Virus record (IMG/VR): IMGVR_UViG_3300030376_000410
Location: 1 to 46,503 of that record
Direction: 5' to 3' (one strand)
Length of the DNA stretch: 46,503 bases
Source of the DNA: a virus
Lineage: Duplodnaviria > Caudoviricetes
Part shown: positions 723 to 28,658 of the stretch, one piece after another
Layout of the letters: each line of letters opens with the position of its first letter
Position numbering within the stretch: position 1 is the stretch's first letter
Program-made: the position numbers and the translations under genes
The notes under the pieces: generated by a model
The model's input: only the letters and a program-made list of their open reading frames with translations
Database searches by the model: none
What the model was told of the DNA's origin: nothing

Positions 723-1039
723 TTGGATCTATTAGCCCAATATGCCGCACTCATTTTACCCTTCTTAATGTTCTTAGCGTGACGAGCTTTAAAGCTTGCA
801 CGTTTCTTTTTCATCTTGTCAGACTCTCCTGCCTTTGGCTTACCTGCCGTCTTAGCACCTTGCTCACCAAATCGAATAGTCTTGATCTTGTCACCTTCTT
901 TAGCCACTACAACATGTGACTTCTTAGGATGCTTCGGAGTTCTCTTAGGCTTGTTATAGCCGCTAACGCCTGCACGAACTAAACGTGGATCTTTCTTCTT
1001 AGCCTTACCACCTTTTTTATATTCTTCTCTATCTATCAT
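716..1039 (-). CDS. Conserved highly basic phage protein
   Basis: 107 aa, Lys/Arg-rich; KKSHVVVAKEGDKIKTIRFG...RASFKARH...SAAYWA pattern recognised from aquatic phages; ATGA coupling to upstream gene. Confidence 0.8.
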   Translation of the reverse strand: MIDREEYKKGGKAKKKDPRLVRAGVSGYNKPKRTPKHPKKSHVVVAKEGDKIKTIRFGEQGAKTAGKPKAGESDKMKKKRASFKARHAKNIKKGKMSAAYWANRSKW

Positions 1040-1290
1040 TTGCGGTGCCTCGCTGTTTTCTTTGCTATCTTTTTGGGTTGCTTAGAGTGCTGTTTTCCTT
1101 TCTTTGTGTCTTCACGTTTCTTTTTGGAAGTGGCAGCGTACTCCTTGTCTGATAGAGCCTCTCTAGCCTTCTTCGGGAGATACCTTTCACCTGTTGCTTT
1201 CTTTCCTTGTGTTGAGGGTTTACCTGACTTGGTTCCCCATTTCTCTTTAGTCCACTTCTTTAGGGACTTCTGTGATTTCTTTAACGCCAT
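1036..1290 (-). CDS. Basic protein corresponding to the C-terminal partner region of DUF5872-type proteins
   Basis: SQKSLKKWTKEKWGTKSG...TGERYLPKKA motif; TAATG coupling. Confidence 0.75.
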   Translation of the reverse strand: MALKKSQKSLKKWTKEKWGTKSGKPSTQGKKATGERYLPKKAREALSDKEYAATSKKKREDTKKGKQHSKQPKKIAKKTARHRK

Positions 1291-1487
1291 TACTTGTACC
1301 CACCACCTGCTGCTTTGTATTCCTTAGCAAGCATCTGAGCTTTACGGGCTGACCACTGTCCCGGCTTACCGCCTTTACTACCCGCCTTGATCTTGTTAAA
1401 TAAACGCTTACGCATAGTAGGCTTGGTATAGTTACCTGCCTCATTAACTCTGGACTTCTTCTTTGCTGGCTTCTTAGCTGCTGGCAT
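1290..1487 (-). CDS. DUF5872-like basic protein
   Basis: YTKPTMRKRLFNKIKAGSKGGKPGQWSARKAQMLAKEYKAAGGGY motif; GGAGG RBS. Confidence 0.8.
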   Translation of the reverse strand: MPAAKKPAKKKSRVNEAGNYTKPTMRKRLFNKIKAGSKGGKPGQWSARKAQMLAKEYKAAGGGYK

Positions 1488-1498
1488 AGTGCCTCCGC

Positions 1499-1948
1499 TT
1501 ATTTAGTTAAGTATGAAATTAAAATGGCTAAACACACAGGCACCAATAGCACCAATACGGCTACGACAGCACCTATTTCTCTAACGTCCTTCCAAAACTT
1601 TTTCTTAGCTGCTGCTGCTCTAGCTAATTCTAGCTGTTTAGCCTTCCTAGCTTCAGCCATAGCAGCCATAGCTTCTTGATATAGCTGACCGTTACCACTA
1701 ACTGTAAAGAGATCTTTGATCTCCTTCATGGTTTCCTGTATTTGTTTCTTAGCTAGTGCAGCTTTTACAGCATCTGCTTCAGATAGTTTACCCTCATTTT
1801 GCGCCCTTGCAAGCTCTACTTCAGCGCCACCAAGCGTAGATAAGAAACCTGATATAGATTGTATATCATTAGTAGTTTCAGCTACACGTTTGATAGCGCC
1901 TGTGGCGGCGTTAACACCTGCTATGATCGCAGATATTTCAGCAATCAT
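1499..1948 (-). CDS. Hypothetical membrane protein in lysis region
   Basis: 149 aa, helical, C-terminal hydrophobic segment IGAVVAVLVLLVPVCLAILISYL. Confidence 0.75.
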   Translation of the reverse strand: MIAEISAIIAGVNAATGAIKRVAETTNDIQSISGFLSTLGGAEVELARAQNEGKLSEADAVKAALAKKQIQETMKEIKDLFTVSGNGQLYQEAMAAMAEARKAKQLELARAAAAKKKFWKDVREIGAVVAVLVLLVPVCLAILISYLTK

Positions 1949-2334
1949 TTTCTGGTCTTCTCATATGACCTCATAGCACCCAATCCCAACATCCCCATAA
2001 GTACAGGCATCATAGTTTCTAGTGGTACTAGAGGTATAACAATGTCTATGCCTACTAAGGCCAGTACAAAGTTAGAAAATGGAATTGTAATAAAGTTTCC
2101 GAACATCCCCAGCCCACATGTCCAACCAATAAAGGGCCTCCAGCCGCTTACAAAGATGCTAGAATGTGCTGCTTCAGTTTTGTTAACCTCAAGCTGACCC
2201 TTCATAAGTTCTTGATGATGTTCTTCTGACATCGTTGCGATCTTATGGGCCAACATAGCTTTCTGGTCTTTGTCTTCAATAAACTTATCTAGTAAGCCAG
2301 TGACAGGGCCTACTAAGCTTGCTACAATACTCAT
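1945..2334 (-). CDS. Holin (GTA 3-TM holin family)
   Basis: LDKFIEDKD, VNKTEAAH, FVSGWRPFIGW and LMGMLGLGAMRSYEK motifs; start revised to MSIVASL right after the endolysin stop. Confidence 0.85.
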   Translation of the reverse strand: MSIVASLVGPVTGLLDKFIEDKDQKAMLAHKIATMSEEHHQELMKGQLEVNKTEAAHSSIFVSGWRPFIGWTCGLGMFGNFITIPFSNFVLALVGIDIVIPLVPLETMMPVLMGMLGLGAMRSYEKTRK

Positions 2335-2335
2335 A

Positions 2336-2704
2336 TTAATAACTCCAGATGTGTGGCCTTGGACGGCCTTCAGAGCATTCAAGGTCATCAAGATGTATGA
2401 ATCTAGTAGGGCCTTTCTGACTTACACCAATACCAGTGAAACCTGCTTCTAGAGCGCCCTGTACGAGCTTGTAAGCGGCTTCACCACGTACCCCTATATC
2501 TAGGGCCTTACCTGATGCGTGTGCCCCCGGAGAGGCTTTACGGGCCTCTATGGGATGATCAGCACAACGGTATGCAGAGTTAACAGGAAAGCTAAATCCC
2601 ATCTTCTCACGTAAGTCATCTACTTTTTGCATGAACTCAGAGTCCATGCCATTAGCTTGACAATGCTTACACTCTAGTTCTTCTTCTGTAAAATATTTAT
2701 ACAT
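2336..2704 (-). CDS. Endolysin, peptidase M15 (Zn D-Ala-D-Ala carboxypeptidase fold)
   Basis: YFTEEELEC, VNSAYRC, HASGKALD and FIHLD motifs; adjacent to holin. Confidence 0.9.
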   Translation of the reverse strand: MYKYFTEEELECKHCQANGMDSEFMQKVDDLREKMGFSFPVNSAYRCADHPIEARKASPGAHASGKALDIGVRGEAAYKLVQGALEAGFTGIGVSQKGPTRFIHLDDLECSEGRPRPHIWSY

Positions 2705-3561
2705 TAAATAAGACCTTCTATTTTCTTAACATCCGTAGAGGCAAGTTTACCTAAATTAATTCTTACTTCGCTTCCCTCACCTTCTCCGCTTCCTAGCTCT
2801 CTAGCTATGTTTCTTAGCTGTGCATAAGGGCTGAAGCCTGCTCTTTTAATACCGGACATTAAACCTGTAAAACTAAACTTATCATCAGAGTCATTAAAGT
2901 TATAACGATCTACAATAATAGTATTGCCTTCATTATCTTTTTCTATACGCGCTTGACCCACGGTAGTCTTCATAGAATACTCAGGATCAAATACTTTAGT
3001 AACAAAATCTAAAGCTCCACCACCGCCGCCTACATCTGCATACTGGCTTTGTCCCTGAACTTGAGTACCATAGTCAGCGTATTCAATAGCTGCCTTACCC
3101 TGACTTTGTGCGCGTAGTGCTGCCTTTCTTAAAGCTTCTTTTTCTTCTTCTTTTAAATCTTGTTCTGTTAAAGTTTCTGAGCCGCCAAATAAATCATACA
3201 CAAACTGGCGAACATTTGTAGGTAGTAAAGGATCTTCATTACGAACAGGTTTTTCAGGCTTGCTCATTAAAGAAGGGGCCTCTTGTTTAACAGGCTCTTT
3301 ACGTACAGGAGCTTCCTGTTTAACAGGCTCTTGACGTACAGGAGCCTCTTGTTTAACAGGCTTTTCACGTACAGGTTGTTGAGCAGCTTGGACTTGTGCA
3401 GCCATATCAGGTTCTTTAGAAGGCACTACAATTTTTTGGCCTACATAAATTTTATCGGGATTACTGATTTTATTATTACGAGCAAGCTCTTTGTAATCCA
3501 TATTATACTTCTTAGCAATTTGACTGAGGGTGTCTCCTCTTTTTATTTCATACGAACTCAT
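2704..3561 (-). CDS. LysM-domain virion protein with repeat linker
   Basis: N-terminal YEIKRGDTLSQIAKKY...NPDKIYVGQKIVVP LysM, then a PVKQEAPVR repeat linker. Confidence 0.85.
   Translation of the reverse strand: MSSYEIKRGDTLSQIAKKYNMDYKELARNNKISNPDKIYVGQKIVVPSKEPDMAAQVQAAQQPVREKPVKQEAPVRQEPVKQEAPVRKEPVKQEAPSLMSKPEKPVRNEDPLLPTNVRQFVYDLFGGSETLTEQDLKEEEKEALRKAALRAQSQGKAAIEYADYGTQVQGQSQYADVGGGGGALDFVTKVFDPEYSMKTTVGQARIEKDNEGNTIIVDRYNFNDSDDKFSFTGLMSGIKRAGFSPYAQLRNIARELGSGEGEGSEVRINLGKLASTDVKKIEGLI
3278..3375. repeat. 33-bp tandem repeat (about 3 copies) encoding PVR-x-x-PVKQEA
   Basis: Units like GCCTCTTGTTTAACAGGCTCTTTACGTACAGGA recur with few mismatches. Confidence 0.85.
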
Positions 3562-6500
3562 GCTGCTCTCCCTTTACGCAAAGCCTTTAATACTTTTCCA
3601 CCCGATTCAAAATTATGTCTTGCATCATTTGGATCAAACTCAATAGCACTTTCAGTTTTAAACTGTCCGGGCTTAAACAATATGTAAGAAAACGCCTCAT
3701 CAGTAGGTACATCTGCTGGAGTATCTGAAGTGTTTAAATACCTGATAGAATCAAAGCCTTGATCTTCTAGCATTTTTCTAAATGATAAATTAATATCTGC
3801 TTTTTTCATACGCTCTACAAGCAAGTCTTTTTCTGACATTCTATTTTTATTAAGCGTACCACCTGTTACTTCATCCTGCCAAGCTTCAAAGTCCAGTACT
3901 TTTTGATACAAGTTGTCTTTGGCAGCCCTAAACTTAGAAGCATTTAAATTTGGAGCCTGAGTGAATACAGCCTCAACAATATTAGGTATTGTATCTGGAG
4001 TATCGAACAACACTGAAGCGTCTGAGTACAGAGCAAAGTTAGGATCGTTTAGTTCTAAAGGATTTTTAACTTGTATAAACCCACGCATCATAGATATTGG
4101 AGGAGGAGCTTCTCCTTTTTTCAAAGGCTTTTTAAGCCTATTAGATATTTGCCGTGAAGTTAAACCTGAGTCTTCATCAAAAGCATCCTCGTCTCCTTGT
4201 CTCCTAAACAATGCCATACGTTCTGCTTGAGTCTGAGTTCCTACGTGCAGTCCCGTTTCGTTAGGCATACCCACAGCCTCTTCAAACTCATTAGAGAAAC
4301 CACTAGCCACTGCTCTGTATTGCATTTGTTTTTCTTTAGATGCGGCTATAAAAGCTTTTTTATTTGCTTCACGAATTTCAGGAGAAACCGTGTAGTCTAT
4401 AGGCATTACCTTACCTGAAGGATCTGTAGGCAGTGCTTGCCTTGGCATTCTGCTAAAAATTTTACGAGCCAATGTCCGTTCTTCTGGCGTAAACTCTGCT
4501 ATAAGTTTTGTTACTTCTTCAGTAGAAATAGTTCTACCGACAGTTTGAGCAACACCTTTGTAGTAATTATCAAACTTATATTCCCAATTAGTATTAATGT
4601 TTCTAGCACCAATAGTATCTAGCTCGTAAGCTACATGATAATCTATGTCTTGAGTATTGGCTCCTTCCATGTCGAACTGCTCGGATAGTTTCATGTCTCT
4701 ATTGTAGTTTTTTATTTGCTCTTTACTATAACCACGCGCCCTGCTAAAGTCATCTCCCATGCGTAAAGCACCTTGCTCGTCTATAAACTCAGGCATTTCT
4801 TTTCGCATATCGGGCATACTTAGGTCATGCTTTTCACCAATCGAAGATTTAACTTTTGCAAACAACATTTCCTTAAAGTCAGGATCGTCTAGCTCTGCTG
4901 GTAAATCAGGATCTGGACTAGCGTAAGTTTCTTCAATATTTTTAGCTACTTTAATTGCACCCTCAGTAGAAACTTTTACATTGTTTTTCTTGGTTTCCCC
5001 TAGAATAGTTTGAGCCAACTCATTTACAAAGGGTGATAAAGCTTTGGTAGCTGCTCTAGTCAGTCCGCCTATTACGTATCGACTTCTTTCTTCACGATCT
5101 TCTTGATCAATAAAGGCATCCCCAGCTTGTGAGTCGTAGGGACGGCCTGTTACTTTATCTATGCGCTCATCAGGTTCACTAGATGCACTTTCTACTTCTA
5201 CAAGGCCACCTTTGTCGTATGGCGCTCTACGCTTTTTCTTTTCAAAGTCTGACCAAAACTGATCATAATCTTCTTTAACATCTTCGCCCATAACCGGATC
5301 TATAGCGCCATAAAAAGGAGTACGACCACCTATAATTGGCATCACTTTACCATAGCTAAATCCTCTAGCTATATCGCTTCCTACAGGGCCAGCTAAGGAA
5401 GCTGTGGCAGTAAAGGGATTGCCTGTTACATCATAAGTTTTTTGAGTTCGTTGAACCATATCTAAAAGAATACCCGCGCCTCCCCACCGCGCTACGCCTT
5501 CAGCAGCAATTTCAGCTCCGCTTTTATCTGAAAAAGAATCTGGATTTCTTAAATAATTCAAACCTGTAGCCACCGCTGTCATACTTATAGCAGCAGCCAA
5601 AGTATTAGCAAACCCTACAGGATTGTCAAAGGGATCTCGAACACCACGTACAAACTCTTTTAAAACTTTATTTGTAAAAGCTGTGGGGTAACCTAGTAGC
5701 TCTGCAAAGATTGCTTTTTTAGGATCTGACATCCAAATAGGTTTTATGGCTGCTCTAGGGCTTGTATCCAAAACAACTTCATTTACATACCTACCAGCAC
5801 CTCTTTTAATATTTTTATAAAAAGGATCTTTAGAATTTATTTCACCATTATTTCTATTTAAATAAGCAATACCTTGATCTACATCTACGTTGAGTTCAGC
5901 CAGTTGATTTCGTAAATTTTTAATTCTTTTAGAATCAGGCAAGGCCCCATGATTTTTAATAGCTGTTAAATTTTTATGTATTAAAGATTTGCCTGTATTA
6001 TACCCAGCAAGCTGCACTGTTTTTGTCCAACCGTCTAACAAAGTTATTTGAAAAAATCCCCTATTTGCTTTTTTAAAACCGTGCCCCGCTACACTAGAGT
6101 CTCCTAAGCGATCAGCTGCGCTAACACTGGCATTTTCTAACATTAAAAATGACTCTCGCATTTCATGGAATATTTCAGGATCTGAAAGACCTTGATCTCC
6201 TAGCTTTCTTCGTAGTCCATTAGTCATTAATTCTGTGCCTTGAGCAATTGCCTGCCCAAGACCCCTAGTCATTTCGCCTGCCCCGGCCTTTTGCATATTA
6301 ATAAGTATTTCAGTCAAACTGGATATTGTGGCAAAAGGTAAAGTAGACATTCTTACCAGAGTTGCATAGCCATCTCGGGCAAACTGTCCCGCAGGCCCAA
6401 AGTCTTCTAAGCCTTCGCCTGTCATACTCTTGTAAAGATTTTGAATGTCTGTTGCATCCTTGCCAGTAAATGTATTACCTGCTTCTTCTACTTCTCTTTT

Positions 6501-8867
6501 AATAGGCTCAATAAATTTATTAGTAAACTCATTTACATTCTCTACACCAAACACTTTTCTTTTTGAATAAGAATTCGCACTTTGCGTAATGTATTGAAAT
6601 AAAACATTTTCAATATCATTATCAAGAAAGGCTTCATACTTATTATCGTCTTTAATATTACTAAACTTACGGGCAGTGAAAAAAGAATTTCCCGATACAT
6701 GAGAAGCTCCCATAGGGCCATCTACATCATCTTTCTTTTTTAGCATACCTGCTACAATAGCATTGGCTTCGTCCATATTTTTAGCTTCGCCATCTTCTAT
6801 AAGAAGTTTAGCAAATCTATTTTGACCTTTACCCGCCAGTTGATTTCTTTTAGCATCAGTTACAACTACACTTTGACCATAAAAGTCTTTCATCAAAGCC
6901 TTTCTATTCCAAAGACGCGGGAAGTAATCTTCAGGAATAACATCTGTTTGAAATCCCAATTCTTCATTTTTAGCAATTACTTGATTTAATACATCGCGTC
7001 TAATTAAACTTGCCGCTTTGTTTACATCCTCTGATTGAGAACGTGATCCACGCAAAGCTCTTATAAGTTCTTTGTTTATAACATCCTTTAAACCGCCTTG
7101 AGAAGCGTCTCGTAGGCTGTGCGTGGCTCTTATTAAAGGGGCATACAAAGATCCAGCATAGTCTTTCCAAGTCTCGTTGTAGTCCATGCCGACCTGTCGT
7201 GCTTCGCTTGTAAAAGTTTGATTAGCGTCATAACGCATTATTTCAGCTAAACGAAGAGCGGAAGGAGACTCAGAAAACTTAGTAAGTACTTTTGTAGGTC
7301 TTCCAAATAAAGCCTTACCATGTAGCGTTTGTGTTTTCTTTAGCAACATTGCTCTAGCATTATCTGGAGATATGACACCTCTTTCTACTTGCAACAGAGT
7401 GTCGGCTACTTCTGCCTGCGTTTGCTCACTGCCTCCAATTTTAGAAGTAAACGCTTGCGCTTTAGCTGTAATAGCTGCGGGAATCTCTACACTGCCCGCT
7501 TCTTGAGCCACGATAGTCAATTCATCAAGAGCTTTAGTTACCTTTTCAGAAGGAGCATCAGGGCCTTTCTTTCTAGTTTTCATGTAGTTGCTAAACGCAG
7601 CAATAGCAAACTCTCGGCGCTGTTTAGCTTTGTTCATACCATAGAATACTTCACCTATTTCTTCCATGAGTTCGTCATCTAGATCATCAATGTTAGGAAG
7701 ATCTCTAGTAGCTTCATAGTCAAATATAACTTCTTCTAGCTCTAACCTGTCTATATCATATTGCTCTGCAATTTTTTCTATGTCTGCATCAGATACAAAG
7801 CCACCATACTTAGTATCTTCTTGCTGGCGCTGTTGAGCTTCTTTAGAAGCCTGTCGAGACTGCTTAGCATTAAATCGTGCCTGCTTCTGAGCCTGTTCTG
7901 GGCTAGGAGCTACGCTCATTAAAAGCTCTTCTACGTCATCTTTAAATTCTAGATCTACATCTTTAACTTCTTCTGCTGAAATTTCATTTTGCGTAGGAGT
8001 GCCAGTTTCATTTACTAAGTTTAATTCAACTTCTTCTTCATCTACAGAGCGTCTAATGTTGGCATCACCCAACCTACTACGAAATATATTATTATAACCA
8101 CGACCAGCAAAAGACAAACCTTTGGCTAACCCCTCTCCAATTTCAGGAGAATATCGCCCTAAAGCACCACCTAAAGTTGCTCCGACACCCGCCGAAGTTA
8201 TGCTTTGCGCCATGTCAAATTCTTTTTGAATATCTGCTGCCATATTAACAGATTGTTCAGAAGCGTTACCAAGACCTCCCCAGCCTGCCCCAGCCACTGC
8301 TGTTTTTGTCATCATAGCATTCCGACTATTGCTGGCTGCAAATTGCAAAGCTCTTTTAGCTGCCTCGTTACCAACAGCAGCTTTCATGCTTGTTGCTAAT
8401 GCGGGGCCACTTACCATAAAAGTAGCTATGTTTACAGGGTCTTGAATAAGATGTTTAGCATTACCAAAAAAAGCACTTACATTTTCAAGACCTTCGGGAT
8501 CTGTATTTTCCCAATCCTGTAGTATTCTACCGTAAGCATCTTTAACTTCTTGCGGTGCTTTTTCAAGCATAGCGGCAGTACCAAAGCCAGAAAAAGTCAT
8601 AGCGTCTTGGCGTAGCCTATCTATAATTTCATCCGAAGCATAGTCTTCTACATTTCCTGCTACAGCTTTCATGTAATCGCTGTCGCCAAACCTATGCTCA
8701 AATACAGTTTCTAAATCCTCTGCTCTTGCAGCTTTAAAATCTGACACAGACATAGTAGTGTCTTGAGCGGCCTCTGGTATATCTTTAGATACAGGCGCAG
8801 ACTGCATGTGATCTGTAAAGTCATTAAGATTTGTAAAGTCTATTTTAGGCTTTGAAATTTCAGTCAT
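3558..8867 (-). CDS. Giant internal virion/ejection protein with C-terminal ADP-ribosyltransferase-like (ART-PolyVal-like) domain
   Basis: 1769 aa in the position of T7 gp16-like core proteins; YFPRLW motif; C-terminal GLHVGT...FIQVKNPL...GFDSIRYLN...YILFKPGQFKT...FDP pattern. Confidence 0.7.
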   Translation of the reverse strand: MTEISKPKIDFTNLNDFTDHMQSAPVSKDIPEAAQDTTMSVSDFKAARAEDLETVFEHRFGDSDYMKAVAGNVEDYASDEIIDRLRQDAMTFSGFGTAAMLEKAPQEVKDAYGRILQDWENTDPEGLENVSAFFGNAKHLIQDPVNIATFMVSGPALATSMKAAVGNEAAKRALQFAASNSRNAMMTKTAVAGAGWGGLGNASEQSVNMAADIQKEFDMAQSITSAGVGATLGGALGRYSPEIGEGLAKGLSFAGRGYNNIFRSRLGDANIRRSVDEEEVELNLVNETGTPTQNEISAEEVKDVDLEFKDDVEELLMSVAPSPEQAQKQARFNAKQSRQASKEAQQRQQEDTKYGGFVSDADIEKIAEQYDIDRLELEEVIFDYEATRDLPNIDDLDDELMEEIGEVFYGMNKAKQRREFAIAAFSNYMKTRKKGPDAPSEKVTKALDELTIVAQEAGSVEIPAAITAKAQAFTSKIGGSEQTQAEVADTLLQVERGVISPDNARAMLLKKTQTLHGKALFGRPTKVLTKFSESPSALRLAEIMRYDANQTFTSEARQVGMDYNETWKDYAGSLYAPLIRATHSLRDASQGGLKDVINKELIRALRGSRSQSEDVNKAASLIRRDVLNQVIAKNEELGFQTDVIPEDYFPRLWNRKALMKDFYGQSVVVTDAKRNQLAGKGQNRFAKLLIEDGEAKNMDEANAIVAGMLKKKDDVDGPMGASHVSGNSFFTARKFSNIKDDNKYEAFLDNDIENVLFQYITQSANSYSKRKVFGVENVNEFTNKFIEPIKREVEEAGNTFTGKDATDIQNLYKSMTGEGLEDFGPAGQFARDGYATLVRMSTLPFATISSLTEILINMQKAGAGEMTRGLGQAIAQGTELMTNGLRRKLGDQGLSDPEIFHEMRESFLMLENASVSAADRLGDSSVAGHGFKKANRGFFQITLLDGWTKTVQLAGYNTGKSLIHKNLTAIKNHGALPDSKRIKNLRNQLAELNVDVDQGIAYLNRNNGEINSKDPFYKNIKRGAGRYVNEVVLDTSPRAAIKPIWMSDPKKAIFAELLGYPTAFTNKVLKEFVRGVRDPFDNPVGFANTLAAAISMTAVATGLNYLRNPDSFSDKSGAEIAAEGVARWGGAGILLDMVQRTQKTYDVTGNPFTATASLAGPVGSDIARGFSYGKVMPIIGGRTPFYGAIDPVMGEDVKEDYDQFWSDFEKKKRRAPYDKGGLVEVESASSEPDERIDKVTGRPYDSQAGDAFIDQEDREERSRYVIGGLTRAATKALSPFVNELAQTILGETKKNNVKVSTEGAIKVAKNIEETYASPDPDLPAELDDPDFKEMLFAKVKSSIGEKHDLSMPDMRKEMPEFIDEQGALRMGDDFSRARGYSKEQIKNYNRDMKLSEQFDMEGANTQDIDYHVAYELDTIGARNINTNWEYKFDNYYKGVAQTVGRTISTEEVTKLIAEFTPEERTLARKIFSRMPRQALPTDPSGKVMPIDYTVSPEIREANKKAFIAASKEKQMQYRAVASGFSNEFEEAVGMPNETGLHVGTQTQAERMALFRRQGDEDAFDEDSGLTSRQISNRLKKPLKKGEAPPPISMMRGFIQVKNPLELNDPNFALYSDASVLFDTPDTIPNIVEAVFTQAPNLNASKFRAAKDNLYQKVLDFEAWQDEVTGGTLNKNRMSEKDLLVERMKKADINLSFRKMLEDQGFDSIRYLNTSDTPADVPTDEAFSYILFKPGQFKTESAIEFDPNDARHNFESGGKVLKALRKGRAA

Positions 8868-8872
8868 TTAAA

Positions 8873-11146: not shown

Positions 11147-11149
11147 AAT

Positions 11150-12595
11150 TTATCTCCCATATCCTACTGCGCCGGGAAAGGCCATCGTAGGGCTTTGATA
11201 CATCATTCCTTGATTTAAAAAGTCCATAGAAATTGCACCTGCGCCATAGTTTCCTGCGTTCAAAACTGGAGTCATGTCTACAGCAGCAAAGTCAAATTGA
11301 GGCAAAACATCTGCTATGTAACCTCTTCCTCCACCAGACATTTCTATTTCTTCAGGTGTGGCAAATGCTCCTGCTGCCTTTTGCAACATCGGAATCCCCA
11401 CAGAAATAGGATCATCAATAGCTGCATTTATGCTTCTGTTAACGCCTGCCATACCACGCTCAAACAACGAAGGCTTTGCTGCTTCTCCAGCTATACCTGC
11501 TACATCAGTAACCTTGCCAGTGTTTAAAAGACCTCTTTCAAAGTCTGTTGTGCCGGGAGCATACTGAGGTTGAGAAGGCATGATGTATTGATTAGCATCT
11601 GCAAAGTCCAAAGGCTTACCTACTATTTCTTCTACAGGACTCAACAAACTTTGAGTGGCTTTTTCATAAGATAAACCACTATAGTCTGCGAGATCAGGGA
11701 CAGCCGGGGTAGAACTATAAGCTGCTAAAGTAGTTTGACTTTGATCCAAGACAGCTTGGCTGGCATCTAAAGCGCCTCCCGTAAGATCTGGTAAGCCCTC
11801 TCCCGTAGGATTAAAGTTTAAGTTCAACTCTCCGGGCTTGTATCCTGTCTCTGGAACTTTTAAAATATTTTCAAACTCTAAAGGATCTGCTGCTGGGTTA
11901 AACCCTGCAATAGTTGCTTGAGCATTAGCTTGAATAGCTTTTATGTTAGGAGAAATTTTACTAAAGTCTAAGTTTAAGTTTTGACCTGTATTAGCTAAGT
12001 TACCAAAAGTATTTTCATTTAAAACTGTATTTGGATTTAATTTTTGTAAATTTTCTACGGATAAACCTGTAGAGCTACTAAGCTTATCAAGTGTCATACC
12101 TTTAGATAAAGTAACATTATCTCGAAAAGGATTCAGTATATTACCCGCATCCATTTTAATTCCTTCCATCACACTATCAGCACCAAAAAAGTTTGCCTTG
12201 GCACTGCTTATATTAATACCGGGAATTTTATTTAATGCAGTTTTACCAAACTCCATGATGCCGCTCGTCACAGTTTTAAAAGCGTTGACACCTGTCTGCA
12301 CAAAACCGTGGGCACCTTTTAATACAGTACCTACGCCTTTAACAACACTGCCTAAAGCAGAGCCTTGAAGCCCCGCAAACTTACCAGTAAGACTAGCCAT
12401 CTTACCTGCCATTCCTCCTAAGCCTTTCATTAAGGCTCCTCCTATTCCCGGAAGAATAAACATCATAGCTAGTTGACCAACTATGCCAATCTTACCCATG
12501 AATTTACCAAATTTCTTAAAGCCTTTCTTGATTGCTCTACCAATCTTTTTAAAGACCTTACCAATACCTTTAAATATTTTTTTGAAAAAACCCAT
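11150..12595 (-). CDS. Putative DNA transfer/pilot protein with amphipathic N-terminus and internal LysM-like domain
   Basis: MGFFKKIFKGIGKVFKKIG amphipathic helix, Gly-rich hydrophobic stretch, and VTLSKGMTLDKLSSSTGLSVENLQKLNP...GQNLNL. Confidence 0.65.
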   Translation of the reverse strand: MGFFKKIFKGIGKVFKKIGRAIKKGFKKFGKFMGKIGIVGQLAMMFILPGIGGALMKGLGGMAGKMASLTGKFAGLQGSALGSVVKGVGTVLKGAHGFVQTGVNAFKTVTSGIMEFGKTALNKIPGINISSAKANFFGADSVMEGIKMDAGNILNPFRDNVTLSKGMTLDKLSSSTGLSVENLQKLNPNTVLNENTFGNLANTGQNLNLDFSKISPNIKAIQANAQATIAGFNPAADPLEFENILKVPETGYKPGELNLNFNPTGEGLPDLTGGALDASQAVLDQSQTTLAAYSSTPAVPDLADYSGLSYEKATQSLLSPVEEIVGKPLDFADANQYIMPSQPQYAPGTTDFERGLLNTGKVTDVAGIAGEAAKPSLFERGMAGVNRSINAAIDDPISVGIPMLQKAAGAFATPEEIEMSGGGRGYIADVLPQFDFAAVDMTPVLNAGNYGAGAISMDFLNQGMMYQSPTMAFPGAVGYGR

Positions 12596-15500
12596 TATGT
12601 AATCCCATTAATAAGAGTGAATAATCTGTCTACATTAGTAGACTTTTCTGCGCCACCTGTAGCTCCCTCGTTAGCTAAGGCTGTAGCATACAGAGTAGTT
12701 TTTCTTTGCTGTTCATTTTCAAAAGCAGTTCTTACATAGGACGCATCGTCCCGTAAGTTCTGCCATAAAAAAGCCATTTCTGCCGAGTCCATTTGGAAGA
12801 CTTGTTGAGCATTCAGCATGTTAGAAGCATTCTGTGCTGCCGTATCAATTGTATTTGATTTTCTACGCCACTCAATATTAGACTGCTCTACAGCTTGAGC
12901 ATTTGCAGCATTCCATGTTTCTCTTTGCAGATCCATGTTTTCATTAAACTGGTCTGCTGTAAGTTTTAAACTTGCATTATGTTTAGATACATCTGTAGCA
13001 TTTTGAGCGTTGATTGCAGAAATTCTATTTTTTTCTGCGGCATTAAACTGTTTCATTGCATTATTTTGTCCGACATTAAACTGACGCATTGAGGCTTCTG
13101 TAGAAGTTAAAAATTGATTTACTTGATTTTCAGAAGTAGCATTGAATTGCCTACGCGCATTCTCAGCTGCTTGATCTGATAAAAGTCGTTGTTGTTTGGC
13201 TTGCTGGTCAAACATAAGAGCTTGCTGCTCATTATTTAAATTAGCCATATCCATAGACAAAAAACTTTGAGCATTTGTAATCGCTACTTTTGTTCTTTGA
13301 TCCACTGCTGCCATATCTAAACTTGCAAGGGCTGTAGCATTTTGAAGCATAGCTTGCTGTTCATTACTTAAATCTGCAAGCACAAGAGTTTGCATAGCTT
13401 TACTGTTGGCAAGTTCAACTTGTTGAGCCGCATTAAACTTTGTAAGGTCTACATTAGCAACCATAGAAGCATGTTGAATAGCTCTTTGTTGATCTACATT
13501 AAGTTGAGCTTGATTCATTTCTGAAGCAATTTTACCTTGCAGCAAATTAGTTTGCAGCCTAGCGTTTAGATTAGCTAACTCTGTTTGTTGTGCAGCACTA
13601 AGATTTTCAGATTCATTTTGATTTCTAGCAGACAGATTAGCTAAGCGCATTTGCTGATCATTAGAAAGATTAGCAAGCTCCATTTGTTGTTTAAACGCTG
13701 CATTCTTTGAAAGAAAATCTGCAGCTAACTGCATTTCTACAAGGCGCTCTTGATTTTCAACAGTCATGTTCTCACGCTCAGTGGCGTCCATGTACTTCAT
13801 TTCAGCCAGCTCTATCTGCTGCTCATTACCAAGCTCCATAGCATTAATAGACTGTTGATTCTGAGAGCGTAACATTGCTGCTTGCTGCTCATTCGCAAGA
13901 TTTTGAGTACGTGTTTGCTGTTGTTGTTGTGCGCTGGTAAGTACTGCTTGTTGATTAAAGTTGCTTTGCAGCACTCCCATTTGTTGAGCCATTTGTGCAG
14001 TCTGTGAAGCTGCTGTCTGCCTGTTAGACAAGTTAGCCATACGACGTTGCATATCTTGAGTAGACTGTGCAAGGTTTGCCTGCTGCTCATTAGATAAGTT
14101 TTGTGCTGCGCGTTGCTGAAGGGCCTGTGCGTTGCTCTGCGCCATAGGCAATGCACTTTGTATAATGGCATTAAAAAGCGCGTCACGGCCCACTGTAGAA
14201 GCTGAGAGGCCCCTTTGAGCAAGCTTTTGTTCTACAGCCGCTAATGCTGGTTTAGCCCACGCAGGCGTTTCTCCATCTTCTAATCCGCCAAGAAGTGAAT
14301 CCATTTGCGAAGACACAAGAGCTTCTGTAGGCAGGGCTGCTACGGCGGCTCGAACTTCTACAGGCTGATCATCAATCTGGGCTTCTACTGTTGCAGGATC
14401 TTCTACTACAGCTGCGGATATATCAGGAGGTAAGTTACCGACAGCGGCTACCATTTCTGCTGCTGCCCCCTTAGCGGCTGTGCCTGTAACAGAACGTCTT
14501 TTAGAAGCTTCATAGCCTACTACTTCATTAATAACCGCAGCATCTCCATCGGGAGCAGGCTCACCTGTAATCTCTTTTCTTTGATTTTCTTCAGCGGCTT
14601 TTGTAGAAGAAACTTGAGCTTCTTCTCCAGTAACCTTACCTGCAAAAGATCTAGGATCAATAGTAAATTCAGCGTCTTTAGCTAAAGTGCTTTCTTTTTG
14701 CTCATCTGTTGTTGTTTTAGCTACGGCTTCTTGAGTAAGCTCTCTAATTTCTTCAGGATCTGCAACAGCTTCTTTGCTTACAGTACCCTCTGCGGCTTCT
14801 GTAGGATCTAATTTTCCTGCTTTTTCTGCCCTATACTCAGCAGCATCAAAGTCATCTACACTTTTAGCTTGATCAGTGTCTGTAACAGACGTTGCTGTAG
14901 CTACCCCGGCCTCTGCCTTATCTCTTGTAACAGCAGTGGGGGTAGTATCTAACTTTTGAACTTCAGTACTTATTCCTGCTGCCAACTTGTCAGCATCAGA
15001 TGCGTTTTTGCCCACAATAGAAACATCTAATTTTTCTACATCAGATTTATTTATAGTTGGTTTGTTGGGGGGAGTTATTATAGGGCGAGGAATACTTTCA
15101 ACAAACTCCTCTAAATTTGTTTTTTTACCTGCCATATTATTTCCTTGTCTTTGAGATGTCGTTGTGTTATTAGCAATGTCTGTAGTAGAGCCGCTACCAC
15201 CGCCCTCTGTCACATTTACAAAATTGTCATCAGAATATGTCCCTCTAGAAGCTTCTCCTTGTCTAGCTTTCCAAGCATTGTGTGCTTTTTTCCACGCATT
15301 CTGGCCTCCAATGCCTCCGGGATATTGATTCCTTCTAGGTTCTGAGTAGTTAGTAGAGGGTGCTGTAGTAGTAGGTGTAGTAGTAGTAGTAGTTGTAGTA
15401 GGATTTTTAACAGTCACACTACCTACATTTCTTGCAGAAGTAGTCTCTATATTTGGACGATTAGCTAGACCTACTGTAACAGAACCTTTTTCTTCTCCTG

Positions 15501-15681
15501 AAGGTTGAGTTGTTACAGGAGTAGAAACTTGTTGTCTTTTTATATCTTCTGGATTAAAAGTAAGGGGGATATTTTTAAGATTAAGACCTCCACCTATTCC
15601 TATACCACCAACCATCTTACGCTTTCGCTTTAAAGCTTTTAAAACCTTCTTGGTATTTCTACTAGATCTTTTATTACTCAT
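12595..15681 (-). CDS. Long Gln/Asn/Ala-rich coiled-coil virion protein (probable ejection conduit)
   Basis: 1028 aa; disordered Thr-rich N-half, repeated (A)NLSNxQQ units in the C-half. Confidence 0.65.
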   Translation of the reverse strand: MSNKRSSRNTKKVLKALKRKRKMVGGIGIGGGLNLKNIPLTFNPEDIKRQQVSTPVTTQPSGEEKGSVTVGLANRPNIETTSARNVGSVTVKNPTTTTTTTTPTTTAPSTNYSEPRRNQYPGGIGGQNAWKKAHNAWKARQGEASRGTYSDDNFVNVTEGGGSGSTTDIANNTTTSQRQGNNMAGKKTNLEEFVESIPRPIITPPNKPTINKSDVEKLDVSIVGKNASDADKLAAGISTEVQKLDTTPTAVTRDKAEAGVATATSVTDTDQAKSVDDFDAAEYRAEKAGKLDPTEAAEGTVSKEAVADPEEIRELTQEAVAKTTTDEQKESTLAKDAEFTIDPRSFAGKVTGEEAQVSSTKAAEENQRKEITGEPAPDGDAAVINEVVGYEASKRRSVTGTAAKGAAAEMVAAVGNLPPDISAAVVEDPATVEAQIDDQPVEVRAAVAALPTEALVSSQMDSLLGGLEDGETPAWAKPALAAVEQKLAQRGLSASTVGRDALFNAIIQSALPMAQSNAQALQQRAAQNLSNEQQANLAQSTQDMQRRMANLSNRQTAASQTAQMAQQMGVLQSNFNQQAVLTSAQQQQQTRTQNLANEQQAAMLRSQNQQSINAMELGNEQQIELAEMKYMDATERENMTVENQERLVEMQLAADFLSKNAAFKQQMELANLSNDQQMRLANLSARNQNESENLSAAQQTELANLNARLQTNLLQGKIASEMNQAQLNVDQQRAIQHASMVANVDLTKFNAAQQVELANSKAMQTLVLADLSNEQQAMLQNATALASLDMAAVDQRTKVAITNAQSFLSMDMANLNNEQQALMFDQQAKQQRLLSDQAAENARRQFNATSENQVNQFLTSTEASMRQFNVGQNNAMKQFNAAEKNRISAINAQNATDVSKHNASLKLTADQFNENMDLQRETWNAANAQAVEQSNIEWRRKSNTIDTAAQNASNMLNAQQVFQMDSAEMAFLWQNLRDDASYVRTAFENEQQRKTTLYATALANEGATGGAEKSTNVDRLFTLINGIT

Positions 15682-15684
15682 TAT

Positions 15685-16077: not shown

Positions 16078-16123
16078 TTTAAACTCCTTTAAAGATTATA
16101 ACATACTTTTAGTGGTTTGTAAA

Positions 16124-16417: not shown

Positions 16418-16671
16418 TATGGTGTCTCCTTCTGTGCAGCTTCATAGGCTGCTATAGCTTCTGATGTGTGGAACGTATTGCACATGGCTTGAACCTCTGT
16501 GCTTTCACCAGACCAATCGTCTGCTGGGTTCACAACGTGTCGATGAAAGGATCTGCTGACCTCTTCATCATCCCTTTTAATAATAGTAGCTGTACGGACT
16601 TGGATGACTTTCCAGCCTCCGCAATCTACTACTTCAATTTTGTCTTCTACTATTGCTTCTGAAAGTGCCAT
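16417..16671 (-). CDS. Tail-fibre-associated small protein (possible chaperone)
   Basis: 84 aa DKIEVV...IQVRTATII...SRSFHRHVV pattern, which typically follows LDDYEEGT-type fibres. Confidence 0.7.
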   Translation of the reverse strand: MALSEAIVEDKIEVVDCGGWKVIQVRTATIIKRDDEEVSRSFHRHVVNPADDWSGESTEVQAMCNTFHTSEAIAAYEAAQKETP

Positions 16672-16691
16672 GTTTAGCTCCTTGATGTAAA

Positions 16692-17528: not shown

Positions 17529-17540
17529 TAGTTGTTCTCC

Positions 17541-22900: not shown

Positions 22901-22903
22901 TTA

Positions 22904-24508: not shown

Positions 24509-25278
24509 TAGACAAACCTCATACGATCATCTTTAAACTCACCCGGATTAGGCTCCATTAAGTTTAGCTTCATCAAACGTAACCCACGTTTGTAATCTTC
24601 AAGAGCAAAGGCAGAAAACTGTGGACTTTCTTTAAATTGATAAATATAATATCTAGCTCTATTAAGTAATACAGGCTTATAAGTATTTGCAAATACAATT
24701 TCATCACTATATAAAGAAAGCTCTGTAGGTAGTACGTAAGCATAAAACCAAATACGGTATACTTTATCTGGTATAGCACTCAAACCAAACTTACGATTGT
24801 CAGGACTTTTGATTACACGATCAGGTACACCGTACTGTTGTGTATCTGCATCATCTAAGTTTTCTGAAATACGACGGTAATCTTTCCAAGCTTCTGTTGT
24901 AGTAAAACGTAAGTTACGTGCAACATAAGGCGCGGCTTCGCCTGATACACCTACAGTAGTAAGATAAAAGTTATCCCAATCAATGTAGCCATAATCAGTA
25001 GTTAGCGAAGAACTAGAAGGCTTTAAAGTATACCAGCGTTGTCCTGCTACAGTTTCTACATACACATTACCGTACATAGGATCTGTTTCGCCACTCAAGT
25101 TAGCAGCAAGGAAAGGCCATTGAGGTTCTTCATTGACAATATCTAGATACGCACGATTAATAGCATCTTTTACGTGTTGTTGAATACCCACAGCAGAAGC
25201 AAAGCTAGAACTTGTAAGCTCTACCTCATTCATCTCCCGAAGGAGTTCATTTGCTAAATCTAGATATGTTGCTGCCAT
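24508..25278 (-). CDS. Head-tail adaptor (tail tubular protein A-like)
   Basis: 256 aa; TYLDLANELLREMNEVEL...INRAY.DI...WPFL motif; downstream of capsid gene. Confidence 0.75.
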   Translation of the reverse strand: MAATYLDLANELLREMNEVELTSSSFASAVGIQQHVKDAINRAYLDIVNEEPQWPFLAANLSGETDPMYGNVYVETVAGQRWYTLKPSSSSLTTDYGYIDWDNFYLTTVGVSGEAAPYVARNLRFTTTEAWKDYRRISENLDDADTQQYGVPDRVIKSPDNRKFGLSAIPDKVYRIWFYAYVLPTELSLYSDEIVFANTYKPVLLNRARYYIYQFKESPQFSAFALEDYKRGLRLMKLNLMEPNPGEFKDDRMRFV

Positions 25279-25451
25279 TATTTATTATTCCTTGCCTTTT
25301 CTTTTGCTTTAGCAGATAAATCTTTAAAGTGATACAACCTTACACTTGTTTTAGTATGAGTTTTATTTGTGTGAAGTTGACCATTTGGCATCTTATGAGT
25401 ATTACCTTTGTACTCAGTACCGTCTCTTTTATAGTGCTTAACGCCTTTCAT
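25278..25451 (-). CDS. Small basic His-rich protein (not in ORF track)
   Basis: 57 aa MKGVKHYKRDGTEYKGNTHKMPNGQLHTNKTHTKTSVRLYHFKDLSAKAKEKARNNK; ATGA and TAATG couplings on both sides. Confidence 0.8.
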   Translation of the reverse strand: MKGVKHYKRDGTEYKGNTHKMPNGQLHTNKTHTKTSVRLYHFKDLSAKAKEKARNNK

Positions 25452-25621
25452 TTCATTGAATTCCGTGATTCTTTAGAAGAACAGTGTCTTTCCATATCTT
25501 GAACAGAAGCATAGCCGCCTGTATTATAAGTACTACGTTGTACAGTGCTGCCTCCCATTTTACCTTCACGTACCATACTACCGTACATCATACCTTTCTT
25601 TTTATCTTTGCCGTACATCAT
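25448..25621 (-). CDS. Small protein built from repeated (K/R)xx(M/K/Y)xxG(G/S) motifs (not in ORF track)
   Basis: 57 aa MMYGKDKKKGMMYGSMVREGKMGGSTVQRSTYNTGGYASVQDMERHCSSKESRNSMK; translationally coupled on both sides. Confidence 0.8.
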   Translation of the reverse strand: MMYGKDKKKGMMYGSMVREGKMGGSTVQRSTYNTGGYASVQDMERHCSSKESRNSMK

Positions 25622-25827
25622 TAGTCTTGCTCCATTGAAAAAGTTTTACTAATTGCTCTAGCTCCTTCAAACTCTGTAGCGCATTCAGGGTCAGAGTCTT
25701 TATTAAAAATTTTATCAAAGTTATCTTTGTAACGTGCGTAATTAGTTCCTTTGCGGATTCTACTGCCTTTACCAGCAATAGTTTGTCTCATCATCATAGG
25801 CTTTGAATCTGAACCAATTTGAGGCAT
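25621..25827 (-). CDS. Hypothetical protein
   Basis: 68 aa from MPQIGSD with GGAG RBS; contains GKGSRIR...YKDNFDKIF. Confidence 0.75.
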   Translation of the reverse strand: MPQIGSDSKPMMMRQTIAGKGSRIRKGTNYARYKDNFDKIFNKDSDPECATEFEGARAISKTFSMEQD

Positions 25828-25840
25828 TATAATCTCCAAT

Positions 25841-25873
25841 AAAAAAAGGAAAGGGGCCACCGAAGCAGCCCCC
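25841..25873 (-). terminator. Rho-independent terminator after major capsid gene
   Basis: Minus strand GGGGCTGC-TTCG-GTGGCCCC followed by TTTCCTTTTTTT. Confidence 0.85.
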
Positions 25874-25884
25874 ACCTAAAAGGT

Positions 25885-26874
25885 CTAGTCGATACCGTAA
25901 AAGGCTGAGACCAGAGCTTCTGGACGCAGTACCTTAGCACCGTAAACGTGTAGACCACGTACAATATCACCAAAGCTTGAAGGATCACGGATCACTTCAG
26001 TGCTGGTAATAGTTTGAGCCGTAGCCGTAGCAGACATGTGACCAGCCAAGCACTTACCAGCAGCGTTAGACGTTGCAGCAATGTTGTTCGACTTGTACAT
26101 ATCAAATCCACGAAGCTTGCCAGAGCTTACCAAACCGTTACGGATTGAGCCTTGGCCTGCGTTGAAGTCTACTGACAAGAGCTTAGAAGAGCTTTGTGCA
26201 AGCACTTCGTAGAACTCAGGATTAGCTACGAACCATCGTCCTTCTTCTGGGATGTTTTGCTCGTCTAGCAAACGTGCCATACGTGCCATCACATCAATAG
26301 GATCATGCTCAGAAGCAGCAAAACCAATGTCCAAGTTACCAGTACCATCAAAAGTACCAGCAGCAAGATCAGTAGCACTATCCGTACCCATGCTGTGGTT
26401 TGGAGATGAATCTGGAACACCGGCAAACATAGTAGCCAGTACACCTGAGTCAAAAGCATCACGCAAAGAGTAAGCTGCTGAAGACGTAGCAACGTCACGG
26501 AAGTTAACGTGAGACATGTTAGTTTCAATGTCATCTACGATAAACTTAAATGCGTTAGCAGTGTCAACAACCAAAGTTACTTCTTGGTCAGTCAACTTAG
26601 TTTGCGTTACATCTTGACCACGCTCATACTGGTAAACAGTAATTTCAGGCTCTTTGATGATTCGTACACTATCACCGAATGCTGCGATTTCACCCGCATA
26701 GTCAGTGTTCGTAATACCTTCAATCACAGAAGCCTTACGGAAAAAGTTTAGTACCTGCTTGGAATAAACTTTAGGTAGGAAAAACGAGTTAGTTTGTCCT
26801 GATACAGAGTTACCAAAGTTAGCATCGGTATCTGTAGACGGTTCAAAAAATTGGTCACTTACGTTGTTAGCCAT
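25885..26874 (-). CDS. Major capsid protein (HK97 fold)
   Basis: 329 aa; FLPKVYSK, ITNTDYAGEI..FGDSVRIIKEP, LDEQNIPEEGRW and FGDIVRGLHVYGAKVLRPE motifs; strong RBS and downstream terminator. Confidence 0.92.
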   Translation of the reverse strand: MANNVSDQFFEPSTDTDANFGNSVSGQTNSFFLPKVYSKQVLNFFRKASVIEGITNTDYAGEIAAFGDSVRIIKEPEITVYQYERGQDVTQTKLTDQEVTLVVDTANAFKFIVDDIETNMSHVNFRDVATSSAAYSLRDAFDSGVLATMFAGVPDSSPNHSMGTDSATDLAAGTFDGTGNLDIGFAASEHDPIDVMARMARLLDEQNIPEEGRWFVANPEFYEVLAQSSSKLLSVDFNAGQGSIRNGLVSSGKLRGFDMYKSNNIAATSNAAGKCLAGHMSATATAQTITSTEVIRDPSSFGDIVRGLHVYGAKVLRPEALVSAFYGID

Positions 26875-26902
26875 GTTAATATTCTCCTAATAACACAATT
26901 AA

Positions 26903-27724
26903 TTATGCTACTACACGGCCCTCCATCATTGCTTGTTTAATATCTTCTTCATATTTATCAAACTGATCTAGGGACATAGCAGCGATTTCCCGTTCAGTCC
27001 AGATCTTAGGTTGACCAGCATCTACGTTAGTTGTTTTAGTTGATACCATATCTGCTGCCGAACCTTGAGATTTCTTTCTGGGCTGTTGTTTTTGAGTAAT
27101 ACCAGTTTCCAATTTATAAAGATCAATAGCTTTTGAAGCTAAAGCAACATTATCAGGGTTGTTATAAACCCAATCTTGAATCTGTTCAGGTTGCTCTTTA
27201 GCCCACGCATGAAACTGCTCATCCCCTCTGATGTCCTCAAAGTCTGGATGACGCTGTTGCAAAGTGGTTTCAGCCTCTCTACGCAATACTTCAGACTCAC
27301 GTTGCCGCATAGCCTGTAGTTGCGCTTCAAGTTCTGCTACCTGCCGTTGACTCTGCATATGTGCTACAGATTCAACAGTGTTATACAGATCAGGATACTC
27401 CTCTTTAAAACTTTCTAACTCTTCTTCAGACTTAGGCGGTTCATAACGAGGTTGTGCTTGTTGAGCCATCGCAAGGAGTTCTTGTTCCTTTTGTTTAAAC
27501 TCTCCAAGTTTTTGATCATAATGTTTCTTTAAATCATCGTATCGTTTCTTATAGTTAGTCCTCTTACGAGGTTGAGCATCTTCTTCAGGGGCCTCTTCAG
27601 GGGTAGCCTGTGATTCTGGCTCAAAAAATAATCCATCTGCACTGCCTCTACTGGGCTTGTCTGGCGTGTGCCAAGACTTTTTAGCATTATAAGGATTACC
27701 AACTTCTTCTTGTACTTCTGACAT
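26903..27724 (-). CDS. Capsid scaffolding protein
   Basis: Acidic coiled-coil protein directly upstream of MCP; NYKKRYDDLKKHYD and HPDF..I...F..W motifs; start revised to ATG 27724 after AAGGAG. Confidence 0.8.
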   Translation of the reverse strand: MSEVQEEVGNPYNAKKSWHTPDKPSRGSADGLFFEPESQATPEEAPEEDAQPRKRTNYKKRYDDLKKHYDQKLGEFKQKEQELLAMAQQAQPRYEPPKSEEELESFKEEYPDLYNTVESVAHMQSQRQVAELEAQLQAMRQRESEVLRREAETTLQQRHPDFEDIRGDEQFHAWAKEQPEQIQDWVYNNPDNVALASKAIDLYKLETGITQKQQPRKKSQGSAADMVSTKTTNVDAGQPKIWTEREIAAMSLDQFDKYEEDIKQAMMEGRVVA

Positions 27725-27740
27725 TCTCAATCTCCTTCAC

Positions 27741-27811
27741 GGGGCTTGTGTCTTGCAAGGTAGCCATATTAACTCCGTCGAGTTTATGGGGCTTGTCTTA
27801 CCAAGGTAGCC
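27741..27811 (-). promoter_or_regulatory. Tandem structured RNA element in scaffold/capsid leader
   Basis: Two copies of GGCTACCTTG-N6/7-CAAGCCCC separated by an AACTC-GACG-GAGTT hairpin, ending 3 nt before the RBS. Confidence 0.6.
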
Positions 27812-27818
27812 GTAAAAA

Positions 27819-28658
27819 TTATCGAAGACTAGGCATTTTATTTGCACCCACCATAAGCTTTTTGATTTCCTCATCGGTTTGACTGAGGGGTGAATCTTGC
27901 TCTTCAGGGTCTTCTTGCATATAACCGCCAATAGCCTTCATTTGATAACCGCCATCATAAGCACGTTCAGCATCATCCATCATTGTTTGAAGCTGATCCG
28001 CACCAATCTGATCGGTTGCTTTTCTGGTAAATACAAACTCTCCATCACTCAAACGAGCGGGGATAGAATCTGATACACCAGTTCCGGGGCCGTCTACTTC
28101 GCCAGCACCCGAAAACTCACTAGCAACTGTAATTACTTTATCTAAGATATCTGATAGTCTTGGATCATTTTGTAATACACCTGCTAGGTAATCTTGTTCT
28201 TCATCGTCAAGGGATTCATCCATGACGTAACTAATATAATCATCTTCCATCTCATCATCTGGAAGCTGTGAAGCCAGTGCTTCATCCATTTCATCTTCTG
28301 GTATGTTTGGATAGGTATCTACCGGCATACCTTCAGGGGGCATCATCATAGAGCCGCCTTCGTTAAATACTCCACGTCCTTTCAAGACATCTGCCTGAGT
28401 AATCTCTCCATCGCCTGTAAGATCTGGCAAGCCACCTTTTGCTTTTCCTGATCTTGTTGCACGTTCTTCAGCACTGCGTTCCTCTTCTATTTTTTTGTGA
28501 ACAGCAATTTTAGTCATATCACTGACGTTTCCAGTATCCCTTTGAAAGTTAGACTCAATATTTTTTCTTTCAGCAGGGGTCTTAGCCTTAGCATAAGACT
28601 TTTGAAAATCTTCCAACATAGATCTATATCCTGCTTCCATATCAAAACTTCTAGTCAT
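27819..28658 (-). CDS. Head-module protein with GPGTGxSDSIPARLSDGEFV domain and EF-hand/dockerin-like loop
   Basis: 279 aa; DLTGDGEITQADVL loop; GEVDGPGTGVSDSIPARLSDGEFVFT domain also seen in tape-measure proteins; multiple xxGG motifs. Confidence 0.75.
   Translation of the reverse strand: MTRSFDMEAGYRSMLEDFQKSYAKAKTPAERKNIESNFQRDTGNVSDMTKIAVHKKIEEERSAEERATRSGKAKGGLPDLTGDGEITQADVLKGRGVFNEGGSMMMPPEGMPVDTYPNIPEDEMDEALASQLPDDEMEDDYISYVMDESLDDEEQDYLAGVLQNDPRLSDILDKVITVASEFSGAGEVDGPGTGVSDSIPARLSDGEFVFTRKATDQIGADQLQTMMDDAERAYDGGYQMKAIGGYMQEDPEEQDSPLSQTDEEIKKLMVGANKMPSLR

Follow-up and report, generated by a model that had tools for sequence, protein, structure and literature searches.

We report that an eight-residue peptide, R-x-x-[FYK]-x-x-G-G, recurs on late proteins of a marine podovirus (IMG/VR record IMGVR_UViG_3300030376_000410; the whole stretch of 46,503 nucleotides is called the window here). 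Judged from sequence comparisons, this peptide, hereafter the tag, is a selected, in-register element on a cargo-like class of proteins, where it lies at the borders of exchangeable cassettes and co-occurs with a short module, the LSxGE module, whose gene lies between those for portal and scaffold. We surmise that the module likely reads the tag and may also cut it; that the tag is an address both read and cut by the module is possible, and it is the reading that we tentatively adopt.

The tag in the window and in relatives

The window represents an HTVC103P/HMO-2011-like podovirus (virus record of 46.5 kb, completeness 90%), a type of phage that is abundant in the sea, and its capsid protein is 61% identical to that of Pelagibacter phage HTVC115P, 51% to those of HTVC103P/104P and 44% to that of HMO-2011. 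The minus strand harbors the late genes, comprising terminase, portal, a scaffold-like gene, a P22-like capsid protein, adaptor, nozzle, fibres and large hypothetical proteins grouped in a block; on the plus strand are the replication genes, among them primase-helicase and DNA polymerase A. Based on synteny and PHROG hits, the large late proteins are presumably internal virion proteins. All eight exact matches listed in the original prediction are where it placed them, on the minus strand and in frame within five real late open reading frames (716-1039, 3558-8867 with three, 12595-15681, 25448-25621 and 27819-28658 with two), its three near-matches (KKGMMYGS, REGKMGGS and YQMKAIGG) exist as well, and the observation is confirmed as real. 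A six-frame scan added one match, at 35809-35832, antisense and outside called reading frames. The late arm thus holds 8 matches vs. 0.38 expected, with none of 1000 shuffles as high; the early arm has none, as predicted, but this absence is uninformative in the window alone because only 0.17 matches are expected there. An origin of the tag in a DNA repeat was ruled out, because codons vary between the copies.

The exact pattern had been picked post hoc, and it was tested against the whole class of two-position-plus-GG patterns with 135 local shuffles. It was the best pattern of its class (-log10P 7.1; shuffle median 5.3, 95th percentile 6.35, maximum 9.1), and after this look-elsewhere correction the window alone is only modestly significant (p about 0.01-0.05). 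A chance pattern produced by post-hoc choice would fit this modest value, as well as the bare enrichment of the exact pattern in named relatives, where it is lineage-specific (the late strands of seven phages hold 5 matches against about 2.9 expected, and the HTVC115P early arm one more). This explanation is nevertheless largely refuted, and we consider it very improbable, given the conservation of tag position in orthologues and the out-of-sample result. For the latter, the 27819-28658 protein was represented by 146 new sequences, one per 50% cluster; four of these were giant proteins and six had no N-terminal part that could be used, and their removal left 136 variable N-terminal parts. The enrichment across related phages that the original prediction implied is evident here, with 141 exact matches vs. 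1.1 expected and at least one match in 92 of the 136 parts, whereas four shifted-register versions of the pattern gave 2-11 matches; in addition, an arginine stands six residues before the first glycine in 149 of 319 distinct GG contexts, a 9-fold excess. Although these counts are inflated because some copies are homologous, homology does not explain the register specificity. A working consensus is [R/K]-x-x-[Y/F/K/M]-x-x-G-[G/S/A/T], the second glycine often being replaced by serine, alanine or threonine, and such looser copies occupy the same gene classes in the seven named relatives.

Which late proteins carry the tag was assessed in homologues from fetched loci, many of them close relatives and hence not independent. 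The exact pattern is present in 52 of 78 homologues of the module protein, 7 of 7 of the large internal protein and 13 of 13 of a 57-residue basic protein, vs. 0/77 for capsid, 0/71 for scaffold, 0/87 for portal, 0/49 for terminase, 0/61 for adaptor, 0/66 for nozzle and 0/52 for fibre. A tag spread over structural proteins in general, as originally proposed, is ruled out by these zero counts in shell, portal, scaffold, terminase and tail homologues; what stands is a tag on the module protein, predicted internal proteins and tiny basic proteins. The tag is optional on the basic protein 716-1039 (5 of 68 homologues), and the exact pattern is found in none of nine homologues of the 1028-residue protein, where tag-like copies occur in the HTVC103P, HMO-2011, CRP-1 and ctYwJ313 orthologues.

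Tagged proteins, cassettes and the helix after the tag

The tagged proteins of the window, apart from the module protein, are as follows.

3558-8867, minus strand: predicted internal virion protein of 1769 residues with three tags
5205-5228, minus strand: tag RAPYDKGG of this protein, exact match
5064-5087, minus strand: tag RSRYVIGG, exact match, followed by an amphipathic helix
3597-3620, minus strand: C-terminal tag RHNFESGG, exact match, followed by a short basic tail
15604-15627, minus strand: N-proximal tag RKRKMVGG, exact match, of the 1028-residue predicted internal protein 12595-15681
25448-25621, minus strand: 57-residue basic protein, mostly tandem tags at 25514-25537 (RSTYNTGG, exact match), 25547-25570 and 25577-25600
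1007-1030, minus strand: optional N-terminal tag REEYKKGG on the basic protein 716-1039 (PHROG 7595)

The original prediction had the matches near termini or domain boundaries, and this is borne out: tags lie at cassette borders or near termini. In module proteins, tags stand between cassettes that relatives have gained, lost or exchanged, and in the 136 N-terminal parts tag number rises with length (rho 0.57, about 1 per 100 residues). The RHNFESGG site, where the 1769-residue protein ends, is an internal junction in relatives of 2516 and 2564 residues (L092 and L098). A basic amphipathic helix directly follows 34% of 68 R-x-x-[FY] tags, compared with a 3% background and 0% before the tag. 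Separately, the 481-residue protein at 11150-12595 (minus strand) opens with a basic helix of strong amphipathicity (hydrophobic moment 0.73) that resembles the post-tag helices, and it is likely a pilot or ejection protein. Between the two N-terminal tags of the module protein, a short Asp/Gly-rich cassette (28377-28430, minus strand), which orthologues either have or lack as a whole, has what we take to be an EF-hand-like look.

This layout would also fit a tag that has no specific reader and serves as a flexible hinge or unfolding point where modules of ejected proteins meet, having spread as cassettes were duplicated and shuffled. Hinges are often made of Gly-Gly, modules are gained or lost at the tagged junctions, and the counts are inflated by shared ancestry. 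However, a hinge does not need an arginine at -6 and a tyrosine or lysine at -3 in fixed register, nor does it account for tags in unrelated proteins and in peptides of 45-57 residues with varying codons, or for their lack in module-negative relatives (see below). We regard the hinge as improbable.

Several neighbors of the tagged genes deserve mention. Both the large internal protein and the adjoining LysM protein (2704-3561) match PHROG 7348. The protein 716-1039 is the first of three very basic small proteins clustered at 716-1487 on the minus strand (PHROG 7595, 14910 and 17747), and about 10,000 stretches of the viral collection match it. A protein family of 121-176 residues with no member in the window opens with a ten-residue N-terminal tag, followed by unrelated sequence, making it a clean case of an N-terminal address.

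L012:581-1111, L013:6466-6831, L026:3660-4049 and L038:2707-3078: the N-terminally tagged family of 121-176 residues

The module and its co-occurrence with the tag

The candidate reader, which carries the only copy of the module in the record, is laid out as variable N-terminal cassettes separated by tags, an acidic helical part, the LSxGE module and C-terminal tags.

27819-28658, minus strand: module protein, 279 residues, between the portal and scaffold genes; candidate reader
28431-28454, minus strand: tag RSGKAKGG, exact match
28353-28376, minus strand: tag RGVFNEGG, exact match, the last before the conserved part
28116-28325, minus strand: acidic part, predicted helical bundle, 23 D/E and 2 K/R in 70 residues
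27960-28115, minus strand: LSxGE module, residues 182-233, assigned by sequence homology
27924-27965, minus strand: two tag-like copies right after the module, as in tape-measure proteins, from sequence

The original prediction of a tape-measure domain present as a head-region gene is supported, in that the module is homologous to the C-terminal module of tape-measure proteins (profile matches to Douge at E 4e-27, JBD30 at 7e-13 and lambda at 0.014; NCBIfam TIGR01541 at E 0.003, far below the whole-domain cut-off). The family comprises 4497 clusters at E<=0.001, and HMO-2011-type phages carry a variant of the module at the same gene position. Residues D197, A201, S204, G206 and E207 are invariant in module alignment A1, an invariance that is overstated, as the search pattern that brought in many of the rows included those residues. 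In the window family, the C-terminal flanking tags are intact and the N-terminal copy is degenerate, its first glycine being replaced. Elsewhere, three or four module copies are found in giant proteins of 2334-4725 residues (P0191, P0231, P0257 and P0260), three of which have a tape-measure domain; the module is N-terminal in Comamonadaceae prophage proteins of 680-780 residues and C-terminal in small proteins of marine contigs (L267, L270, L276, L260 and L283).

The link between tag and module is supported by the flanking motif and by co-occurrence. A tag profile trained only on the N-terminal tags of module proteins was run on the other late proteins, yielding 22 tags vs. 7.6 expected in seven module-positive phages (7, 5, 3, 3, 3, 0 and 1 per phage, with two overlapping match pairs) and 1 vs. 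5.3 expected in five module-negative relatives. Absence of the module was judged on whole records for HTVC033P, CHOED and phiM6 and, for MQM1 and RHph_N3_13, on fetched regions together with tblastn; the tag scan of CHOED covered part of the late region, and the partial RHph_TM3_14A and crAss001 were excluded from both totals. From this co-occurrence and the flanking motif, we infer that the module is the reader. The tag-and-reader interpretation of the original prediction is thereby retained for a defined class of late proteins sharing a selected tag, and not for all structural-arm proteins.

Alternatively, a host protease or chaperone might read the tag, at assembly or after ejection, with the module as a fellow passenger. 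Family searches identified no phage protease, and a host is involved in T5 tail-protein cleavage, to go by the title of a reference in 10.1101/2022.09.20.507954, which bears only indirectly on the question. The tag, however, follows the module and not the host: among Pelagibacter phages, HTVC033P has neither module nor tags, while HTVC103P/104P/115P have both, and the motif extends to phages of Alphaproteobacteria, Bacteroidetes, Gammaproteobacteria and Actinobacteria. A host reader would therefore come as a surprise.

Possible reading, cutting or docking of the tag

The choice and preparation of podovirus ejection proteins are poorly understood. We postulate that, during head assembly, the module would gather tagged proteins in the prohead, probably acting as an oligomer or on a partner because it does not fold alone in AlphaFold2 models, and would cut at or just before the tag glycines. 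Cutting would free cassettes that start with basic amphipathic helices, which could serve membrane entry at ejection, as well as short basic peptides that could neutralize DNA; the acidic part is a possible partner of the basic tagged tails. In tape-measure proteins, the same module and its two flanking tags would act in cis. Small residues at both glycine positions, with a fixed residue three before, resemble the consensus site of a protease. In favor of an address that is read and cut are the cassette architecture, the post-tag helices, the module co-occurrence, the flanking of the module in tape-measure proteins, the lambda masses (see below), the absence of the tag from shell proteins, the lack of proteases in the window other than the M15 lysin and tail S74 domains in Pfam and PHROGs family searches, and gene position, the module gene lying between the portal and scaffold/capsid genes, the usual place of phage prohead proteases.

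A number of observations weigh against this reading: 1) the module is only about 50 residues long, and searches of Pfam, NCBIfam and PHROGs gave tape-measure matches only, with no match to a protease family or to an HK97-, T4- or ClpP-like prohead protease; 2) both AlphaFold2 models have a core without strands and at low confidence; 3) R-x-x-K tags are followed by an amphipathic helix in 6% of cases vs. a 3% background; 4) CRP-3 has the module but no tags outside it, and ctYwJ313 has one; 5) the co-occurrence is not independent because the module-positive phages are related, and the sample is small; 6) the lambda masses fit an upstream Gly-rich stretch equally well; and 7) the domain of the crAss001 cargo protein gp45 was modelled from residue 425 across Gly427-Gly428, and the protein was treated as one chain in PMC10172136, so that there is no cut between those glycines unless the piece stays bound, a cut just upstream being still compatible. 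As to the models, the module alone reached a predicted local distance difference test (pLDDT) score of 61 and a predicted template modelling (pTM) score of 0.35, and the module with the acidic part reached pLDDT 72 (core 57-75) and pTM 0.42; neither has a usable core, and confidence is limited to the acidic bundle of helices that precedes the module and to a pair of helices at the module's end. Fold searches were uninformative: Foldseek found nothing in the PDB for the module model, VIA-align of the module-alone model gave a best Z of 2.7, and the BFVD fold search returned one unnamed match at E<=0.001, with weak rows that include tape-measure proteins. PMC4819975 gives no processing for phiRIO-1 virions, which bears only indirectly on the question.

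Nearly as likely as an address that is read and cut is a docking tag that stays uncut, in which the motif, in many cases together with the helix or basic tail after it, would bind the module or another prohead component repeatedly, thus loading and ordering cargo, with the module protein as a portal-anchored organizer like gp45. The same co-occurrence with the module would be expected, the low-confidence models show no catalytic fold, 54 of 197 tag spacings in the 136 N-terminal parts are below 20 residues and other tags are near termini, and the tag on 716-1039 is an optional add-on. In addition, gp45, cargo protein C1 with its portal-bound domain (PMC10172136), carries the motif about eight times, its domain 425-552 lies between two copies, both of which are kept in homologues, and the first was modelled intact. 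On the other hand, uncut docking leaves unexplained why tail proteins have the motif on either side of the module and why helices start right at the tag, and residues specific to module-positive phages in 11 genomes amounted to one position each in portal and capsid and none in scaffold, which is not meaningful and marks no docking partner. Homology of the module to the gp45 domain is suggested by cores that align in register and by crAss001 C1 being the nearest named ESM Atlas cluster (0.83, a lead only), but it is not significant in profile-profile comparison (hhalign P 0.12 and 0.29, from shallow profiles), and none of 55 module rows gave a Pfam match to the C1 domain (PF25725). We also re-matched published matrix-assisted laser desorption/ionization peak lists of crAss001 (PMC6235969, supplement 8, bands 5-13 of 13) after removing trypsin and very weak peaks by hand: portal (9 vs. 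1.6), capsid, gp22, gp23, gp25, gp26, gp29 and gp36 were assigned in these bands, but gp45 was not above decoy, a weak point since the untagged gp46 is also unclear. As an aside, stop codons stand in frame where Gln belongs in a crAss-like contig (L331:3001-3360), which probably reflects recoding of a stop codon.

Comparison with known systems

The module shares its homologous core with the C-terminal module of tape-measure proteins (lambda gpH 733-782, JBD30 gp46 about 1018-1090 and two copies in Douge gp16; inside TIGR01541), and both have hydrophobic-x-x-Gly-Gly on either side, as do many prophage copies. Unlike in a tape-measure protein, the module here is part of a 279-residue protein in a podovirus gene set that has no long-tail module, and other proteins also bear copies of the flanking motif. 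According to the accessible texts of PMC12617516, PMC13033339 and PMC11445458, the tape-measure module is not resolved in the lambda, JBD30 and Douge structures; the text of PMC13033339 does not mention cleavage, and that of PMC11445458 describes the JBD30 copy as a predicted hairpin-and-helix hook, speculates on a cut at 1066 and found no peptidase motif. In lambda gpH, copies of the motif at 733 and 778 enclose the module, and a cut at the first would yield 80.0 + 12.3 kDa by computation. According to PMC12617516, a peptide of about 14 kDa is removed from a glycine-rich region, leaving gpH* of about 78 kDa, with site and catalyst given as unknown; the two sets of masses are compatible but not exact. 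A bolder proposal, which we hold to be unlikely, is that the module is an unrecognized small protease activated by oligomerization, which would cut its own flanking tags in tape-measure proteins, supply the missing catalyst of gpH to gpH* conversion and, as a stand-alone maturation enzyme, load cargo polyproteins and cut them into peptides that act on membranes or bind DNA, in marine podoviruses and perhaps crAss-like phages. If the module does cut, this old question about gpH would have a direct test. Like the module protein, crAss001 C1 (gp45, PF25725), a virion cargo protein, is strung with the motif, and its domain core, hydrophobic-x-E/D-G-E-x-V, resembles the module, but the gp45 domain is 128 residues long and gp45 lies among tail genes.

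Our literature searches, with most subscription papers outside their coverage, found no description of the motif; new here are the test with register controls, the exclusion of whole protein families, the finding that tag and module co-occur, the post-tag helix and the comparison of lambda masses. With a transferable address of eight residues, internal proteins could be annotated from sequence and reporters possibly be loaded into capsids.

Short shared peptides that are both address and cut site on internal proteins are exemplified by the T4 capsid-targeting sequence, with the prohead protease gp21, and by phiKZ gp175. The tag is likewise a short shared motif on proteins that are presumably internal, but its consensus is another one, and T4-type systems have a recognizable serine prohead protease whose substrates include capsid and scaffold, both tagless here. 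Adenovirus protease sites, (M/I/L)XGG|X and (M/I/L)XGX|G, also have a hydrophobic residue upstream of the glycines, and cleavage at them releases an amphipathic helix along with short basic peptides; in the tag, the spacing is off by one residue and an upstream arginine is added, and family searches found no adenain-like cysteine protease. Because no protease of either type was found and the shell and scaffold proteins are tagless, we place the tag in neither system, while surmising by analogy that it may work much like the T4 signal or the adenovirus sites.

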